DNA of 64,000 nt from Acidobacteriota bacterium (GTDB taxonomy: Bacteria > Acidobacteriota > UBA6911 > RPQK01 > JAJDTT01), in contig OZ242374.1 in assembly GCA_965209055.1 (NCBI GenBank), positions 5,760,001 through 5,824,000 of the forward strand, in the 5' to 3' direction. The translations under genes and the position numbers were made by a program. Within the stretch, counting starts at the first letter, position 1, and the number at the start of each line of letters is the position of its first letter. Below the pieces are notes generated by a model that was not told where the DNA came from, did not search any database, and saw only the letters and a list, made by a program, of their open reading frames with translations. This document shows positions 26,924 through 31,629 of this stretch, one piece after another.

Positions 26924-28556
26924 GGATCACCTGGTGGTCCATGCAGAAAGGATCGATCGTTTCCAACAGGCCGTCGATGAACCCGGGCCCCTCCTCCATC
27001 AGGAATTGGTTGAAGTTGACGACCCGTTCCTGCAGCTTTCCCTGAGGATGAAGACGGGTCTGGAGATGGTCCAGATGGCGGCCGGCGACGCCGTCGCGGG
27101 TCCGGTAGTTTTCCAGGAATCGCTTCTCCACCCTTTCCATCTGATAGAAGACTCGTTTCCAAGCCCGGGGGACCATCTTGCCGAGACTCGGGTCCACGCG
27201 GACAATGTCCCCCTGCAGCCGGGTCAGGCTCTCCCGAACCACGTCGGCAACCCGGTCGAACTCGTCCAGGACCTGCTTTGATGCTCCGGTCCTGGCGACG
27301 CGTTGGGTGATGCGGGAGGCACCCAGGGAGAGCAGCTCGACCAGATCCAGCGAGTGCTTCTTCAGCAGCCGCTGGGACTTCCGGTCCACTACCGTGACCC
27401 CGGCCCTGGGAAACACGCAGCATTGAATCTTCCAGTAGGGACTGATGGCGCCGACCTGGCTGAAGTAGGCGACCTCCGCCGGCCCTCCTACGTAGGCCAC
27501 GGTAGGGAACAGATGATCCTGAATGATGGGCCGCAACAACACGTTGGGACCGAACTCTCCGGTTCCGGTTCGTATCCGGTCCAGCAGTTCCTCCGCCGGC
27601 AGCCGGAGAGTGCGGCTTCCGCGACTCCAATAGGCTCCCGACCGGTAGTCCAACTTGTAACGCCGTCTCTCCTCGAGCCAGAAGAGGAGTGATTCGGAGC
27701 CCTCCACAGGCACCTGCGCCCGGTGACCTTCCGCCTCCAGCTCCCGGCCGCGGGCCTGCAGGGAGCGGATCAGACACTTCCGCTCCACGACCGCCGTCTC
27801 GAAGACCGGTCTCAACGCATCCTTGTATCCGGAGTGGAGCGCGTCGAAGAGAATGAGTCCCTGGTTTCGAAAGAGGCGGCCGAGCCACCGGCCCTGGGCA
27901 TCGGTAAAGAACGTACCGGGCGCGTAGGCCGATTCGAGGGTCCGGAGGACCTCTTCCCGATATTCGGAAACGGGAGCGCCGTCCTGGAGCCTCTTCAGGG
28001 GATCACCGGTCGCTTCCAACGAAACCGTGCCCACCATGGTCGCCGAAGGGGGGGAGGGACCGGAATACCCCAGCCGAAGCAGCGATCCTTGCGGATCGAA
28101 AAAGGCCGTGGAACGGGACTCCAGAAAATCGGAGTCGTCGGAAGGAAGCCAGAAGACGGGAACCGCCGCGTACCCTCCCGCCTCCAGGATCCGGGCCAGG
28201 CTCACGGCGGTCAGCGCCTTGTAGACGGAGAGGGCCGGTCCGCCGAACAGGCCCAGTTGTTGGCCCGTGACTACGGCCACGGTCCCGGGATCCCGCAGCT
28301 TCTCGATGTTCTCGCGGGTAGAGGAGCCCGAGCCCACCCGGGCATTGAAATCGAGGAGCATCCGGACGAGGGCCTCACGGGGCAACCGGGAGTCCCGTTT
28401 TCGCGCGGCCTCGGCTCTCTCACCCAGAGCCTCCGGACCCGTGTGCGCCGTTCCGGCCGGATAGAGGGGCGCGACCTGGTCGAAATCGTACAGATACTGG
28501 AGAAATAGCCGACTCTGCCCCGGCAACCGGCGGCGGTCGAGACGATCGAGTCTCAT
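26916..28556 (-). CDS. bshC: Bacillithiol cysteine-adding enzyme
   Basis: VVTGQQLGLFGGP...YKAL, VPVFW, PNVLLRP, YVGGPAEVAY, LQERV. Confidence 0.93.
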   Translation of the reverse strand: MRLDRLDRRRLPGQSRLFLQYLYDFDQVAPLYPAGTAHTGPEALGERAEAARKRDSRLPREALVRMLLDFNARVGSGSSTRENIEKLRDPGTVAVVTGQQLGLFGGPALSVYKALTAVSLARILEAGGYAAVPVFWLPSDDSDFLESRSTAFFDPQGSLLRLGYSGPSPPSATMVGTVSLEATGDPLKRLQDGAPVSEYREEVLRTLESAYAPGTFFTDAQGRWLGRLFRNQGLILFDALHSGYKDALRPVFETAVVERKCLIRSLQARGRELEAEGHRAQVPVEGSESLLFWLEERRRYKLDYRSGAYWSRGSRTLRLPAEELLDRIRTGTGEFGPNVLLRPIIQDHLFPTVAYVGGPAEVAYFSQVGAISPYWKIQCCVFPRAGVTVVDRKSQRLLKKHSLDLVELLSLGASRITQRVARTGASKQVLDEFDRVADVVRESLTRLQGDIVRVDPSLGKMVPRAWKRVFYQMERVEKRFLENYRTRDGVAGRHLDHLQTRLHPQGKLQERVVNFNQFLMEEGPGFIDGLLETIDPFCMDHQVIHV

Positions 28557-28571
28557 GCGGCCGCCAGTTTA

Positions 28572-28602
28572 ACAGCCCGTGGCAAGAGTCATCACCGACT
28601 GT
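28572..28602. repeat. Dispersed repeat, copy 1 (ACAGCCCGTGGCAAGAGTCAT...)
   Basis: 21 bp identical to 40567-40587; 28 of 31 identical when extended. Confidence 0.8.
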
Positions 28603-28609
28603 CAAACCG

Positions 28610-28651
28610 AAAGTCCCGCGCGGCACCGGGACCGATGCCGCGCGGGACTTT
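28610..28651 (-). terminator. Probable intrinsic terminator downstream of comEA
   Basis: 16-bp perfect stem AAAGTCCCGCGCGGCA / TGCCGCGCGGGACTTT with T-rich ends on both strands. Confidence 0.75.
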
Positions 28652-28725
28652 TATCAGGGACCGCCGGGTTCAGCGTCCTCGGAACCCCGCGCCTTGAGAA
28701 GACCGGAACGTTGCGGCACAGACCG

Positions 28726-29034
28726 CTACGGGCGCTTCGCCTGTTCCTTGGATGGAGTGGGGGTGGCCTTGACCATGATCCGGTCCCTGAGCCTCAGAAA
28801 AGTTTTCTCACCGATGCCCCGGACGTTCATCAGGTCTTCAATCCGCTTGAAGGCTCCGTTTTTCTCCCGGAACGCCACGATTCGCCTGGCGATTGCCGGT
28901 CCGACGCCGGGGAGAGCGTCCAACTCTTCCACCGTCGCCTGATTCAGATCCAGTTTGTCCGCAGCCGCCACATCCGGGCACCAGAGCCAGGGCATGGCCA
29001 TCAGCAAGGTCGAGAACAACAGAATCTTTCGCAT
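28726..29034 (-). CDS. comEA: ComEA-like helix-hairpin-helix DNA-binding protein
   Basis: AAGGAGG RBS, signal peptide, LDLNQATVEELDALPGVGP...IVAFREKNGAF...EDLMNVRGIG. Confidence 0.92.
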   Translation of the reverse strand: MRKILLFSTLLMAMPWLWCPDVAAADKLDLNQATVEELDALPGVGPAIARRIVAFREKNGAFKRIEDLMNVRGIGEKTFLRLRDRIMVKATPTPSKEQAKRP

Positions 29035-29057
29035 GTGCACCTCCTTATGGGTTGTTA

Positions 29058-29065
29058 TTTCGTTT
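29058..29065. repeat. 8-bp target-site duplication TTTCGTTT (left copy)
   Basis: Exact direct repeat of 30316-30323, immediately abutting the inverted repeat. Confidence 0.85.
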
Positions 29066-30315
29066 GGGAATTACAAAGTGCAGTTGACACTTTACAGTTC
29101 TGGCGCCACGCTCAGCCTACTGGCCCACGTTCCGGCGCCCAGGGCAAAATTCCCGGCCCTGAGAATGTTCAGGGCCGCGTTGTGGTCCCTGTCCATTCTG
29201 AGATCGCAGGCTGAGGAGCGATACGTCTCGCTCCTCCCAGGTCGATTCCTGACGCCACACCGGTGACAGTCCCGCGACGTGTATTTCGGGTCCACTTCCA
29301 CGAACTCCCGCCCGGCCCACTCTGCCTTGTACTGGAGTTGATTGCGGAGAATGCCCCAGGATTGAGTCGCAATCTCACGATTCAGGCCCTTCTTGTTCAA
29401 ACCCTTCGTGGTCATACCTTTGACGTTCAGTTTCTCGACGGCAATCCGGCCATGCTCCCGGATAATTCCGGTGGTATGCCGATGGCACACATTCCGGTTC
29501 CTGACTTTCTCCCGATAGCGGAGTCGGGCCAGTTGACGGACCCGCTTCTTTCGACGGTTCGACCCCTTCTTGCTTCTTGCGATCGCTCTCTGCTGCTGCC
29601 GGACCTCTGGCCAGTCTCTCCGGTTCCGTTCGATCCGTTCCCCAGTGGACATAACCGCCCGCTTGCGAACTCCAAGATCAATGCCCACCGCAGACGGGCA
29701 TTCCGGCAACGGTTCCTTCTCCACCTCGTAGACCAGATCGACGTAAACCCGATTCGGCTTGCGGACGATCCGCAACGCTTTCAGTTCACCTTCGGGCAGG
29801 GGTCGAGCAGGAAACAACCGAAGCGTGGGGAATCCCTTGATCCGGATCGCGAATCCGCACTTGCGCTTCTTCACCATCGTCGTCTTCGGGTCCACAAAGT
29901 CGATGGTCTCCATCCGCGCGATGGGCCGGAACCGGGGATGCCCCGGCTTCTCCCCCGCCTTGCAGCGACGAAAGAACGCTTGGTAAACCCGGTCCAATCG
30001 AAACAACATTCCCCTTTCGGCCTTGACAGCAATGGACCCCAGTCCTTCCGGGTCGGCCTTGCGCTTCCGGGTCAATCCCTTCATCTGGTCATACAGGGAG
30101 ACGCTTTTCCTGTCCTTCTCCCAGGCGTTCTTTCGCTCCTCCAGGGCGGAGTTGTAGAGACGGTTCAAGACGGACCGAATCCAGTCGAGACGCCGCACCC
30201 CATTCTTGGAGAGTTTCGCCCGGCATTGGAAAGTTGCGTGAGAAATCATTAGATGGATGAGTACTCAATTGGCATGACATTGGTCAACGCACGTCAATTA
30301 GTCTTTATAATTCCC
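29066..30315 (-). mobile_element. Non-autonomous IS1595-like element (TIR plus 8-bp TSD) carrying only tnpB
   Basis: 23-bp imperfect TIRs 29066-29088 and 30293-30315 (18 of 23 match, GGGAATTA..AAAG....TTGAC); 8-bp flanking direct repeat; no transposase inside. Confidence 0.8.
29092..30249 (-). CDS. tnpB: RNA-guided endonuclease TnpB
   Basis: N-terminal LYNSALEER, KPGHPRF; RuvC-I GIDLG, RuvC-II IAVEKL, V-x-P-x-Y-T-S plus CHRC zinc finger, RuvC-III DRDHNAALNI. Confidence 0.95.
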   Translation of the reverse strand: MISHATFQCRAKLSKNGVRRLDWIRSVLNRLYNSALEERKNAWEKDRKSVSLYDQMKGLTRKRKADPEGLGSIAVKAERGMLFRLDRVYQAFFRRCKAGEKPGHPRFRPIARMETIDFVDPKTTMVKKRKCGFAIRIKGFPTLRLFPARPLPEGELKALRIVRKPNRVYVDLVYEVEKEPLPECPSAVGIDLGVRKRAVMSTGERIERNRRDWPEVRQQQRAIARSKKGSNRRKKRVRQLARLRYREKVRNRNVCHRHTTGIIREHGRIAVEKLNVKGMTTKGLNKKGLNREIATQSWGILRNQLQYKAEWAGREFVEVDPKYTSRDCHRCGVRNRPGRSETYRSSACDLRMDRDHNAALNILRAGNFALGAGTWASRLSVAPEL

Positions 30316-30323
30316 TTTCGTTT
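30316..30323. repeat. 8-bp target-site duplication TTTCGTTT (right copy)
   Basis: Exact direct repeat of 29058-29065. Confidence 0.85.
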
Positions 30324-30375
30324 CCTATCTGAGCCTAACGTCCCGGGTGGAAAAAACGCGAAGCGGAGCGGCGGC

Positions 30376-31629
30376 TCACCCGGCAACTGGTGATTGGACG
30401 CCGTTGCAGAGATAGTCGAAAATTTCGTAGTTCCGGGCTCCCTGGGCCGCCCGGGACTCGTACTCGCCGCTCAGCGGTTCCGAGAGCAGCATGGGGACCA
30501 TCACCTCGTGGCGTCCGCCGTGGGACCGCAGGGGTTCGTTCAGGACGCTGAGATCGTGGTCGGCGGGGGTCTTCCCGATGACGGCGCCGGCGTCCGCCAT
30601 CACGACCAGATCGCCGATGCGGTCGGCCGGCAAATCCAGTTCCCTCGACGCCGCAGTGCGATCGTAGACTTCGTCGATGCCGGGCAGCCGGCGGATCCAA
30701 GCAGCCACGGAAGTGGTCTCCGCGGGTTCGGCCACGTGCACCATGACCGCCGAACCCAGGGATCCGTGATGAACGACGTAGGGGTCCGTGATGGGACAGA
30801 CCACTCGGTTCCCCTCTCCGAAACGGTCTCGCAGCAGAGATTCCAGATAAACGACGTTAGGGCTCCCGCCGGGTCCGGTTTTGGCGTTCATGCCGTGGTC
30901 AGCCGTCACTCCAACCCGGGCGCCGGTCTCCAGCAGCGCACCGATCTCCCGGTCCAGCGCCTGGTGAAAATCGAGCGACTGGTCAGACTCGGGAGGAAAT
31001 TTGTGCTGCATGTAGTCGGTCAGGGACAGAAAGAGAAAATCGGCCAGTTTCCTCTGCACGAGGCGGACACCGGCCGCCAGCACGAAGAGGCTGGCGCCGG
31101 CGCTGTAGATCTCCGGCTGCGGCCTGCCCACCAGGTCCTCCAGGTTCCCAATGCCGTGGGTCCCGACGGTGGCGGCCGCGGCCCGCTCCGATGAGAAGGC
31201 GATTCCATCCAGGTCCTTCGTCAGCAGGTCCCGAAGTTTTTCCTTGGCCGTCACCATCGCCACCTTCCTGCCGGCACGGGACGCTGCCGCCAGAATCGTG
31301 TCGCATCGGACATAGCGGGACGAGTTCATCATCAGCTCCCGGCCGGTCCGGGGATCGAGGAAGAAGTTGCCGCTGATCCCGGTGACGGAAGGAGGAACCC
31401 CGGAGACGATGCAGGCATTGTTCACGTTGGTGAAGGAGGGGAGGGCGCCCCGGACCACGGTCTCGAATCCGGCTTCAGCCAGACCGTCCAAATGGGGCAT
31501 GCGGCCGCGATTCCGGGAAACCTTCAGGTACTCGGGGCCGCATCCGTCGATGCAGACCACCGCCAGCGGCTTGGCCGGAGGCCGGTATTGCACTCCGTTG
31601 ACCCGGAAAGGCGTCGTGCTGATCCGCAT
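30376..31629 (-). CDS. phnA: Phosphonoacetate hydrolase
   Basis: VNGVQYRPP, VCIDG, PSFTNVNN, GISGNFF, TAKEKLR, SLTDYMQHK, TADHGMN, DPYVVHHG, LRSHGG. Confidence 0.9.
   Translation of the reverse strand: MRISTTPFRVNGVQYRPPAKPLAVVCIDGCGPEYLKVSRNRGRMPHLDGLAEAGFETVVRGALPSFTNVNNACIVSGVPPSVTGISGNFFLDPRTGRELMMNSSRYVRCDTILAAASRAGRKVAMVTAKEKLRDLLTKDLDGIAFSSERAAAATVGTHGIGNLEDLVGRPQPEIYSAGASLFVLAAGVRLVQRKLADFLFLSLTDYMQHKFPPESDQSLDFHQALDREIGALLETGARVGVTADHGMNAKTGPGGSPNVVYLESLLRDRFGEGNRVVCPITDPYVVHHGSLGSAVMVHVAEPAETTSVAAWIRRLPGIDEVYDRTAASRELDLPADRIGDLVVMADAGAVIGKTPADHDLSVLNEPLRSHGGRHEVMVPMLLSEPLSGEYESRAAQGARNYEIFDYLCNGVQSPVAG

Follow-up and report, generated by a model that had tools for sequence, protein, structure and literature searches.

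A tnpB-bearing IS1595-type transposon in an Acidobacteriota genome and the guide RNA predicted at its right end

The tnpB element and its IS1595-type ends

We analyzed a stretch of 64,000 nucleotides (the window) from an Acidobacteriota bacterium (assembly GCA_965209055.1, contig OZ242374.1, positions 5,760,001 to 5,824,000). An element of 1250 bp occupies window positions 29066-30315 on the minus strand, with tnpB as its sole cargo and only open reading frame (ORF). A repeat search found inverted arms of 23 nt at its ends (29066-29088 and 30293-30315; 78% complementary), and an exact 8-nt direct repeat (29058-29065 and 30316-30323) adjoins both arms. These are referred to below as the terminal inverted repeats (TIRs) and the target-site duplication (TSD). 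The element is a non-autonomous IS1595-type transposon. A structure maintained by base-pair covariation reaches its right end, and the insertion sites of its relatives are asymmetric in a manner that suggests RNA-guided recognition of the empty site by TnpB. The features of the locus are as follows, in the order in which the minus strand is read; the last motif base before the TSD is numbered -1, and TAM denotes a target-adjacent motif.

30324..30328, minus strand: left flank (...ATAGG) bordering the TSD, with G at 30324 (-1, invariant in the TAM-like motif) and at 30325 (-2)
30316..30323, minus strand: left TSD copy, 8 bp, AAACGAAA, from the repeat search; single copy at the empty site of the related genome G004
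30293..30315, minus strand: left TIR, GGGAATTATAAAGACTAATTGAC, IS1595 type, with a terminal motif common to IS1595 transposase-encoding elements
29092..30249, minus strand: tnpB, 385 amino acids plus stop, with RuvC residues D191/E272/D355 and Ser345 at the third zinc-finger Cys
29140..29161, minus strand: predicted omega-RNA helix 5 (CAGGGC...GCCCUG), the loop of which (GGGAAU, 29154-29149) is the 5' strand of the proposed pseudoknot
29102..29139, minus strand: predicted omega-RNA helices 6 (29139-29134 with 29107-29102) and 7 (29130-29122 with 29117-29108), from covariation
29094..29101, minus strand: predicted single-stranded linker AGAACUGU, conserved; the stop codon begins with its final U
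29068..29100, minus strand: predicted terminal hairpin, the 3' strand of which is the inner right TIR; it includes AAAGTG/CACTTT
29066..29088, minus strand: right TIR, with the proposed scaffold end and pseudoknot 3' strand in its last 6 nt (AUUCCC, 29071-29066)
29058..29065, minus strand: right TSD copy, AAACGAAA, an exact repeat and the predicted first 8 nt of the guide
29046..29057, minus strand: host flank UAACAACCCAUA, upstream of a ComEA-like gene; predicted rest of a 20-nt guide, by analogy with TnpB omega-RNAs

The right junction reads ...CTG TAA AGTG TCAA CTGCACTTTGTAATTCCC, followed by the TSD AAACGAAA and then TAACAACCC. An earlier note, made from the window sequence alone, had read this order (...TAA-AGTG-TCAA..., then the TSD, on the coding strand) correctly. 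It had placed the stop codon 3 nt inside the TIR; the codon (29092-29094) in fact precedes the 23-nt arm, separated from its inner edge by 3 nt and from the end of the element by 26 nt. Several subfamilies do have the stop codon within the TIR, at 5-17 nt from the element end. Scans of window 28900-30450 identified no promoter and no terminator, and thus no terminator-like site between the tnpB stop codon and the flank. The element is preceded by a phosphodiesterase gene and followed by the ComEA-like helix-hairpin-helix gene. The latter is on the strand of tnpB, and read-through from the element would enter it. The predicted guide region (29038-29065) overlaps its 5' leader and ribosome-binding site (AAGGAGG).

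TnpB of this family looks like a nuclease. The window protein matched Pfam OrfB_IS605 (PF01385; 64.6 bits, cut-off 30.5, E 1.2e-17), Pfam Cas12f1-like_TNB (PF07282; 83.4 bits, cut-off 26.3, E 1.2e-23), and NCBIfam guided_TnpB (197.4 bits, cut-off 100). Its best natural solved relative by phmmer was the RNA-guided endonuclease TnpB (8exa; E 1.9e-29, residues 30-372). The RuvC residues D191, E272, and D353/D355 are present in every one of the 24 full copies, that of the window among them, and the reading frame was open in these 24 copies across 6 genomes. Of 41 related genomes, six encode close relatives of the window TnpB (P0001; E <= 1e-30); all six belong to one genus, and a single genome has as many as 16 matches. 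Of 401 genomes sampled across the phylum, three had matches at E <= 1e-70, again all in one genus.

We attribute the ends to the IS1595 family. The terminal decamer GGGGMTTATA was enriched over a control in all four genomes of the genus that were counted: 18 vs 3 in the window genome (G000), 43 vs 8 in G007, 45 vs 8 in G005, and 12 vs 6 in G004. Inverted pairs of the decamer surround tnpB and also occur at spacings of 1762, 1627, 1531, and 3531 bp; those in G000 span 257 bp and 1.4, 3.1, 4.8, and 7.5 kb. Transposase-bearing elements with these ends had an 8-bp TSD with at most one mismatch in 19 of 20 cases, and an 8-bp TSD is typical of the IS1595 family (ISfinder). The proteins of ~325-335 amino acids that they encode matched Pfam DDE_Tnp_IS1595 (E 1.5e-33 to 3.9e-39) and the Pfam IS1595 zinc ribbon in each of the five tested, and one matched NCBIfam transpos_IS1595 (179 bits, cut-off 75). 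The closest correspondence was found in G005 and G007, where the TIR of the abundant tnpB subfamily (GGGGATTATATACGTAAGTGCCGA) is almost the same as that of the 1762-bp autonomous insertion sequence (GGGGATTATATACGAAAGTGCCGA); this cognate pair differs at 1 of 24 bases (T vs A, position 15). Since its TIRs are common to elements encoding IS1595 DDE transposases and tnpB is its sole ORF, the window element is a non-autonomous IS1595-type transposon that carries tnpB as cargo. Three intact genes for IS1595 transposases occur in G000.

The earlier note had proceeded from IS605-type ends, a premise that does not hold for these IS1595-family TIRs. An IS605-type reading was ruled out by the 23-nt TIRs, the exact 8-bp TSD, and the single 8-mer at empty sites. 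The 1250-bp element contains no tnpA. Y1_Tnp (PF01797) gave only two weak matches in G000 (30.8 and 23.6 bits, at ~1.14 and 3.75 Mb), which fall within frames of 307 and 394 amino acids (G000:C1:1142970-1143203 and 3750831-3751106), far from both tnpB copies of this genome. The window TnpB scored below the cut-off of NCBIfam IS200_TnpB (159 bits vs 425). Membership in IS607 was rejected on the presence of a TIR and TSD and on the NCBIfam IS607_TnpB score (121.5 vs a cut-off of 350); the genome was not scanned for a serine recombinase, the TnpA type of IS607.

Other IS1595-type elements on G000:C1 carry different cargo. One (6041919-6045037, L040) encodes a transposase with a D12 adenine methyltransferase and a NotI-like restriction endonuclease, and another (6066994-6068365, L041) a trypsin-like protease alone. 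Two larger elements of 4.8 kb (1716560-1721358, L037) and 7.5 kb (2732331-2739795, L038) contain several unnamed ORFs.

Comparisons of junctions across 9 genomes of the genus, with a 3-kb region as the query, identified orthologous empty sites. G004 reads gatagg-AAACGAAA-accc, with the 8-mer in single copy, and further empty sites are gatagg-ATACGAAA in G001, gataga-AAACCCAA in G007, and gatagg-AAACCCAA in G003. Related genomes thus keep the empty site, and the window TSD is not a chance repeat because the G004 site carries a single copy of the 8-mer. In G005, the orthologous site (G005:C1:1409446-1411837, L222) is occupied in the same orientation by an internally deleted tnpB element of 649 bp with AAACCCAA on both sides, i.e. 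the local 8-mer as its TSD. This remnant is 92-97% identical to another G005 copy (L009) and 77-88% identical to the window copy. Therefore, two tnpB subfamilies reached this site upstream of the ComEA-like gene independently. An ancestral insertion common to the window and G005 was ruled out by subfamily identity and by the local AAACCCAA TSDs. The RNA-library contig X15, from a relative and with a loose end at 29046, reads GGGGCTTATATG..., and this end adjoins the ComEA side.

The ends were read in 27 elements, namely the 24 full-length copies of the genus and three distant relatives: L062 (Caldilineaceae, 48% amino acid identity), L064 (Alphaproteobacteria, 46%), and L107 (Paracoccaceae, 39%). 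An 8-bp TSD with at most one mismatch was found in 21 of the 27; L005, L006, L012, L022, L026, and L064 were dropped. A further relative, L061 (Bryobacterales, 52% amino acid identity), has degenerate TIRs and the TSD ATAATCTA, which was read by eye. A metagenome scan returned relatives at no more than 40% identity and no further TSD-bearing copies. The second tnpB copy of G000 (C1:4032176-4033368, L002/L012) is 76% identical to the window copy in nucleotides and falls in a different subfamily. With a degenerate left TIR and mismatches at 2 of 8 positions between the flanking 8-mers, it is an older insertion.

A covarying structure at the right end

Two alignments were folded: A2, the last 200 nt of 17 copies from the genus, and A3, the last ~115 nt of 17 sequences, which adds L061 and a miniature inverted-repeat transposable element (MITE) described below. 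The A2 consensus has 35 pairs, 12 of them with compensatory changes, and 97.5% of its cells are paired vs 37-46% when the partners are slid by 1-3 columns. The core of A3 (helices 5-7) has 20 nested pairs, with 99.7% of cells paired vs 33-40% when slid; 10 of the 20 pairs changed on both sides, and none of 500 shuffles attained any of five measures. Both sides changed in 3 of 6 pairs of helix 5 (100% of cells paired) and in 4 of 6 and 3 of 8 pairs of helices 6 and 7 (99-100%). Helix 6, for example, occurs as GGCGCC/GGCGCC, GGUGGC/GCCACC, GGCACC/GGUGCC, and GGAGCG/CGCUCC. A number of the compensatory changes are nonsynonymous. Synonymous diversity is reduced to 0.12 at codons 360-374 and 0.10 at codons 370-384, vs 0.18-0.42 elsewhere and ~0.3 gene-wide. 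The linker AGAACUGU contains a GAAC.GU that is nearly invariant in A2 and A3.

A second, shallower dip in synonymous diversity (0.18 vs ~0.3) lies at codons 300-314 (window ~29308-29352), ~215-280 nt from the right end. It could reflect a 5' part of the omega-RNA, a promoter, or codon-level constraint.

Downstream of the linker, the minimum-energy fold of the window sequence forms a terminal hairpin of 10+3 bp over 29100-29068. The AAAGTG/CACTTT hairpin of the earlier note is therefore confirmed and extends further than was noted. In 19 of 20 relatives folded, the inner TIR likewise supplied the 3' strand of a terminal hairpin, despite their differing sequences; L032 folded otherwise. The last 6 nt of the TIR pair in turn with the loop of helix 5. 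This pseudoknot helix was 96% paired in A3, with 2 of 6 pairs changed on both sides. The tail AUUCCC faces the loop GGGAAU in the window lineage, L062 (Caldilineaceae), and L064 (Alphaproteobacteria); elsewhere AUCCCC faces GGGGAU (the MITE) and AGCCCC faces GGGGUU (five others). The alignment of homologous 3' regions, which the earlier note had proposed in order to see where conservation stops, thus revealed conservation and covariation up to the last base of the TIR. These findings predict a structured RNA that overlaps the 3' end of tnpB and reaches the right end of the element, and the scaffold most likely runs through the TIR to the last transposon base.

The earlier note had also considered that the scaffold ends at TCAA, in which case the guide would be the TIR itself, fixed and aimed at transposon ends. 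TCAA resembles the right-end cleavage tetranucleotide of IS608, and a fixed guide is conceivable for a TIR that is identical in every copy of a subfamily. However, TCAA comes from the TTGAC motif, which IS1595-type TIRs also have in elements without tnpB, and some tnpB subfamilies, such as GGCACTTAG and GGCTAGCCAAG, lack it or have it in a shifted position. In all 20 sequences folded, the bases that follow it are paired within the scaffold, in 19 of them as part of the terminal hairpin, and the last 6 nt covary with the upstream loop. A guide of this type would cut the element's own two ends and leaves the asymmetry of the left flank, described below, unexplained. We regard this model as barely credible.

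Searches for the module apart from tnpB indicated the system to which it belongs. An nhmmer profile found four copies in G000: the two tnpB copies, a MITE of 257 bp, and a solo right-end remnant (G000:C1:1427850-1427946) that kept the module. The MITE (L039, G000 C1:4815243-4815499) has IS1595-type TIRs, the TSD AAAGGGTA, and the omega-RNA module alone as cargo. Both it and the remnant show further compensated helices and may serve as guide-only elements, for which TnpB would have to come from another locus. A covariance model found the module at the tnpB 3' end in L060, L061, L064, L157, and L107, and more weakly in others. The weak matches L157, L205, and L219 are right ends without a paired left end; the first base of the right flank is not A in L078 or L157, although the TSDs of both are unverifiable. 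The covariance model found no module in 21 IS1595 loci without tnpB, and it was also absent from left ends. The structure is thus best assigned, from its distribution, to the TnpB system rather than to the ends recognized by the transposase.

This distribution also bears on the possibility that the 3' structure is a DNA or RNA signal for transposition or tnpB expression, with TnpB inactive or in another role, such as that of a regulator. Subterminal transposon sequences often bind transposase, the window copy lost a zinc-finger Cys, and contigs from RNA libraries cannot demonstrate a transcript. However, the transposase does not need a module that is absent from all 21 loci without tnpB and from left ends, and the covariation keeps pairing rather than sequence. 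Moreover, RuvC is intact in 24 of 24 copies, the frame is open in 24 full copies of 6 genomes, and the module is located where the omega-RNAs of TnpBs lie. We consider a signal of this kind to be very unlikely.

An Rfam scan of window 28000-31500 at E <= 1 yielded no matches, which is uninformative since a family for the omega-RNA of this TnpB clade may be uncurated. Among 22 listed runs, four RNA runs contained 12-17% of the sampled words. Matching of these at >= 90% likeness gave contigs only, from relatives and mostly at 90-95% identity, and they are neither for nor against a transcript. One contig of 3609 nt (X15/X16, one study) comprises the last ~270 nt of a related tnpB, the right end, and an unrelated flank.

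Asymmetric insertion sites and the predicted guide

Insertion sites were oriented by tnpB in the 21 elements with a good TSD, and the MITE was placed in the orientation of its omega-RNA. Position -1 was G in 21 of 21 sites and position -2 was G in 13 of 21. Within the TSD, position 1 was A in 20 of 21, positions 2 and 3 were A/T in 21 of 21, and position 7 was T in 16 of 21; positions 4-6 and the sequence to the right of the TSD were unconserved. The combination of G at -1 and A at TSD1 (hereafter the G-A motif, with the flank/TSD boundary between its two bases) was present in 22 of 22 elements bearing tnpB or the omega module, and the MITE conforms to it. Nineteen autonomous IS1595 copies showed it six times in the forward and six times in the reverse orientation, i.e. 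in 12 of 38 site-orientations (Fisher p 4.8e-8). The difference held in the cognate subset (10/10 vs 7/26, p 7.7e-5). The preference for A/T at TSD2 and TSD3 was found in autonomous insertion sequences too (18/19 and 13/19). Among the six dropped copies, five have G at -1 and five have a right-hand 8-mer that begins with A; L061 also fits the motif, as read by eye. The TIR ends in ...CCCC, and the occupied site accordingly has C where the empty site has G. The G-A motif looks like all or part of a TAM.

The earlier note's second model, in which the scaffold includes the TIR and the guide is the TSD plus flank directed at the empty site, is supported by covariation to the last TIR base and by this TAM-like motif at the left flank/TSD boundary, which is confined to tnpB/omega-bearing elements. 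We propose that the system works as follows. IS1595-type DDE transposases encoded elsewhere would move the element in trans. A scaffold of ~100 nt would consist of the last ~75 nt of the tnpB frame (helices 5-7), the linker, and the terminal hairpin. The last 6 nt of the TIR would close the pseudoknot with the loop of helix 5, and the scaffold would end at the last base of the transposon. The guide would be the right TSD copy and the host flank, AAACGAAA-UAACAACC..., and the target would be the unoccupied site, ...GG-AAACGAAATAACAACC, in which the 8-mer is preceded by the host ...GG and not by the ...CC of the TIR. With the G-A motif of the left junction as the TAM or part of it, the occupied allele would be spared because ...CC of the TIR replaces ...GG of the host before the 8-mer. 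The cutting of empty or precisely excised alleles may then be followed by recombination that restores the element, which would amount to homing or retention. We consider this explanation as a whole, i.e. an IS1595-type tnpB transposon with a TIR-ending scaffold, a TSD-plus-flank guide, and homing to the empty site, to be probable on the sequence evidence.

An alternative concerns the position at which the guide starts. Part or all of the right TSD may belong to the scaffold and mirror the TAM, as in Fanzor; this would make (G)GAWW or the TSD the TAM and shift the start of the guide to TSD4 or to beyond the TSD. A G-A-W-W motif spans the boundary between flank and TSD. The conservation of TSD1 (A in 20/21), TSD2-3 (A/T in 21/21), and TSD7 (T in 16/21) is in line with this arrangement, since a TAM base must be conserved and a guide base need not be. 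Solved Fanzor complexes have the 5' TSD in the TAM and the 3' TSD in the scaffold (PMC13565253). On the other hand, the A/T at TSD2-3 is a preference of the autonomous insertion sequences and need not reflect TnpB, and with TSD4-6 unconserved a TAM of the whole 8-mer would hold little information near the guide. The pseudoknot also stops at the last TIR base, which is where the guide starts in prokaryotic systems (PMC13565253). We regard a Fanzor-like register as unlikely.

The asymmetry may alternatively arise at integration. TAM-bound TnpB with its omega-RNA may bias or license IS1595 integration such that the right end always lies beside ...G-A. This would explain why the motif occurs in 22 of 22 elements vs ~30% for the same transposase without tnpB, and why two subfamilies entered one site independently in the same orientation. 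If true, it would represent a primitive form of nuclease-assisted transposition, conceptually upstream of the Cas12k CRISPR-associated transposons, and not only a filter acting after insertion. We consider it a long shot.

Several findings weigh against homing to the empty site by a TSD-plus-flank guide. An invariant A at TSD1 is unexpected for a guide base, and the guide may start later. The invariant G at -1, with G at -2 in 13 of 21, holds less information than the TAMs of 4-5 nt of studied TnpBs. The covariation of the pseudoknot rests on few events; only 5 of 6 pairs form in the L008 group, which has a U-U mismatch, and in L022. The window stretch of 101 nt adopts the same helices (-40.8 kcal/mol); however, as a single sequence it folds only moderately better than shuffles (z -2.08, with 6 of 200 as good). 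CAGGGC of helix 5 also has an alternative partner, GCCCUG, upstream; the MITE keeps only the downstream one. A perfect 9-nt inverted repeat (CGGCCCTGA/TCAGGGCCG, window 29154-29177) provides this alternative partner of the helix 5 5' strand.

Other points concern the window copy itself. Its CxxC...CxxC zinc finger, located between RuvC-II and RuvC-III, is incomplete (C328, C331, S345, C348). Residue 345 is Cys in the other 23 of 24 copies and Ser in the window copy alone; codon 345 (window 29215-29217) is TCC (Ser) vs TGC (Cys), and a G008 copy that is 94% identical has Cys. No transposase-encoding element in G000 has the subterminal TIR of the window element, which is shared there only with the 257-bp MITE, and the window copy may therefore be immobile or decaying. 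Because of Ser345 and the lack of a cognate transposase in G000, the window copy may be inactive. Ser345 does not disqualify it as a TnpB, since zinc fingers were lost in some TnpB branches (PMC10691335). For elements of this kind in general, it has been argued that DDE excision itself creates a break, so that what TnpB contributes is less obvious than in IS605 (PMC13565253).

Comparison with known systems

The TnpBs of IS200/IS605 elements (ISDra2 TnpB; PDB 8exa, 8h1j) share with the window family the protein family, the RuvC D-E-D triad, and a structured RNA that overlaps the tnpB 3' end and runs to the right end of the element. In prokaryotic omega-RNAs, a pseudoknot is formed by back-pairing of the scaffold's 3' end (PMC13565253), as is predicted here. 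However, the window locus lacks a Y1 TnpA and has TIRs and an 8-bp TSD, whereas IS200/IS605 elements have subterminal hairpins, lack TIRs and TSDs, and insert 3' of a tetra- or pentanucleotide. The first 8 nt of the presumed guide are the duplicated target, and the TAM-like sequence is G-A rather than a T-rich pentamer. Elements of the IS1341 type have neither inverted repeats nor duplications (PMC3119063).

Six DDE-associated TnpB branches with inverted terminal repeats were described by Altae-Tran et al. (2023, PNAS, PMC10691335). As in the window element, TnpB lies within inverted-repeat transposons with the tnpB 3' end <250 bp from the transposon end, and solo TnpBs have the ends of transposase-bearing copies, which implies mobilization in trans (PMC10691335). 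Its main text identifies branch DDE-6 as IS630 and contains no occurrence of "IS1595"; the present clade may be one of DDE-1 to DDE-5. The DDE partners listed in the compared part of the review PMC13565253 are ISL2, IS630, and IS1031. An omega-RNA/TIR fold, the TSD as a guide, and a TAM-like asymmetry are not described in the sections of PMC10691335 that were compared. Searches by title and abstract for TnpB with IS1595, IS1595 with RNA-guided, and TnpB with ISXO2 returned no relevant publication. TnpBs inside DDE/TIR transposons are thus already published, and the IS1595 partner and the present details were not found in print. The earlier note had called either of its models unusual, which is justified relative to IS200/IS605; it does not hold more generally, since TnpBs in DDE/TIR transposons (PMC10691335) and Fanzor omega-RNAs that run through the TIR (PMC13565253) have been published.

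Fanzor nucleases are likewise cargo of DDE transposons with TIRs and TSDs, their omega-RNA runs through the transposon end, and the TSD is involved in the TAM and scaffold (PMC13565253). In contrast, the window protein is prokaryotic and has the usual size of a TnpB; its catalytic E (E272) precedes the zinc finger (C328) by ~55 residues, vs 6 in Fanzor. The pseudoknot has apparently been kept in the window family, and the 8-bp TSD is mostly variable rather than short and fixed, e.g. TA.

The arrangement of the window element recurs in Acidobacteriota, Chloroflexota, and Alphaproteobacteria, which points to an old and stable partnership. In IS605 and IS607, both of which leave no scar on excision, the way in which TnpB homes is understood. 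The way in which an RNA-guided nuclease would benefit DDE transposons, which move by cut and paste and generate TSDs, is under discussion (PMC13565253). The window family would be a compact, multi-copy bacterial case in which the TIR doubles as the 3' hairpin and pseudoknot strand of the guide RNA and the guide presumably starts inside the TSD. A difference of one to two bases (G of the host vs C of the TIR) could separate empty from occupied alleles, and the asymmetry of insertion sites may provide a direct read-out of the effect of TnpB on a DDE element. A scaffold of ~100 nt with a protein of 385 amino acids may also interest builders of small editors.

The closest relatives of the element as a transposon are the IS1595 insertion sequences with their cargo and MITE derivatives, which have the same terminal GGGGATTATA TIRs and AT-rich 8-bp TSDs. 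The window element differs from them in that it lacks its own transposase and carries a predicted RNA-guided nuclease, the RNA of which would use the TIR. The autonomous IS1595 copies lack the orientation-specific G-A motif that insertions of the tnpB elements show.

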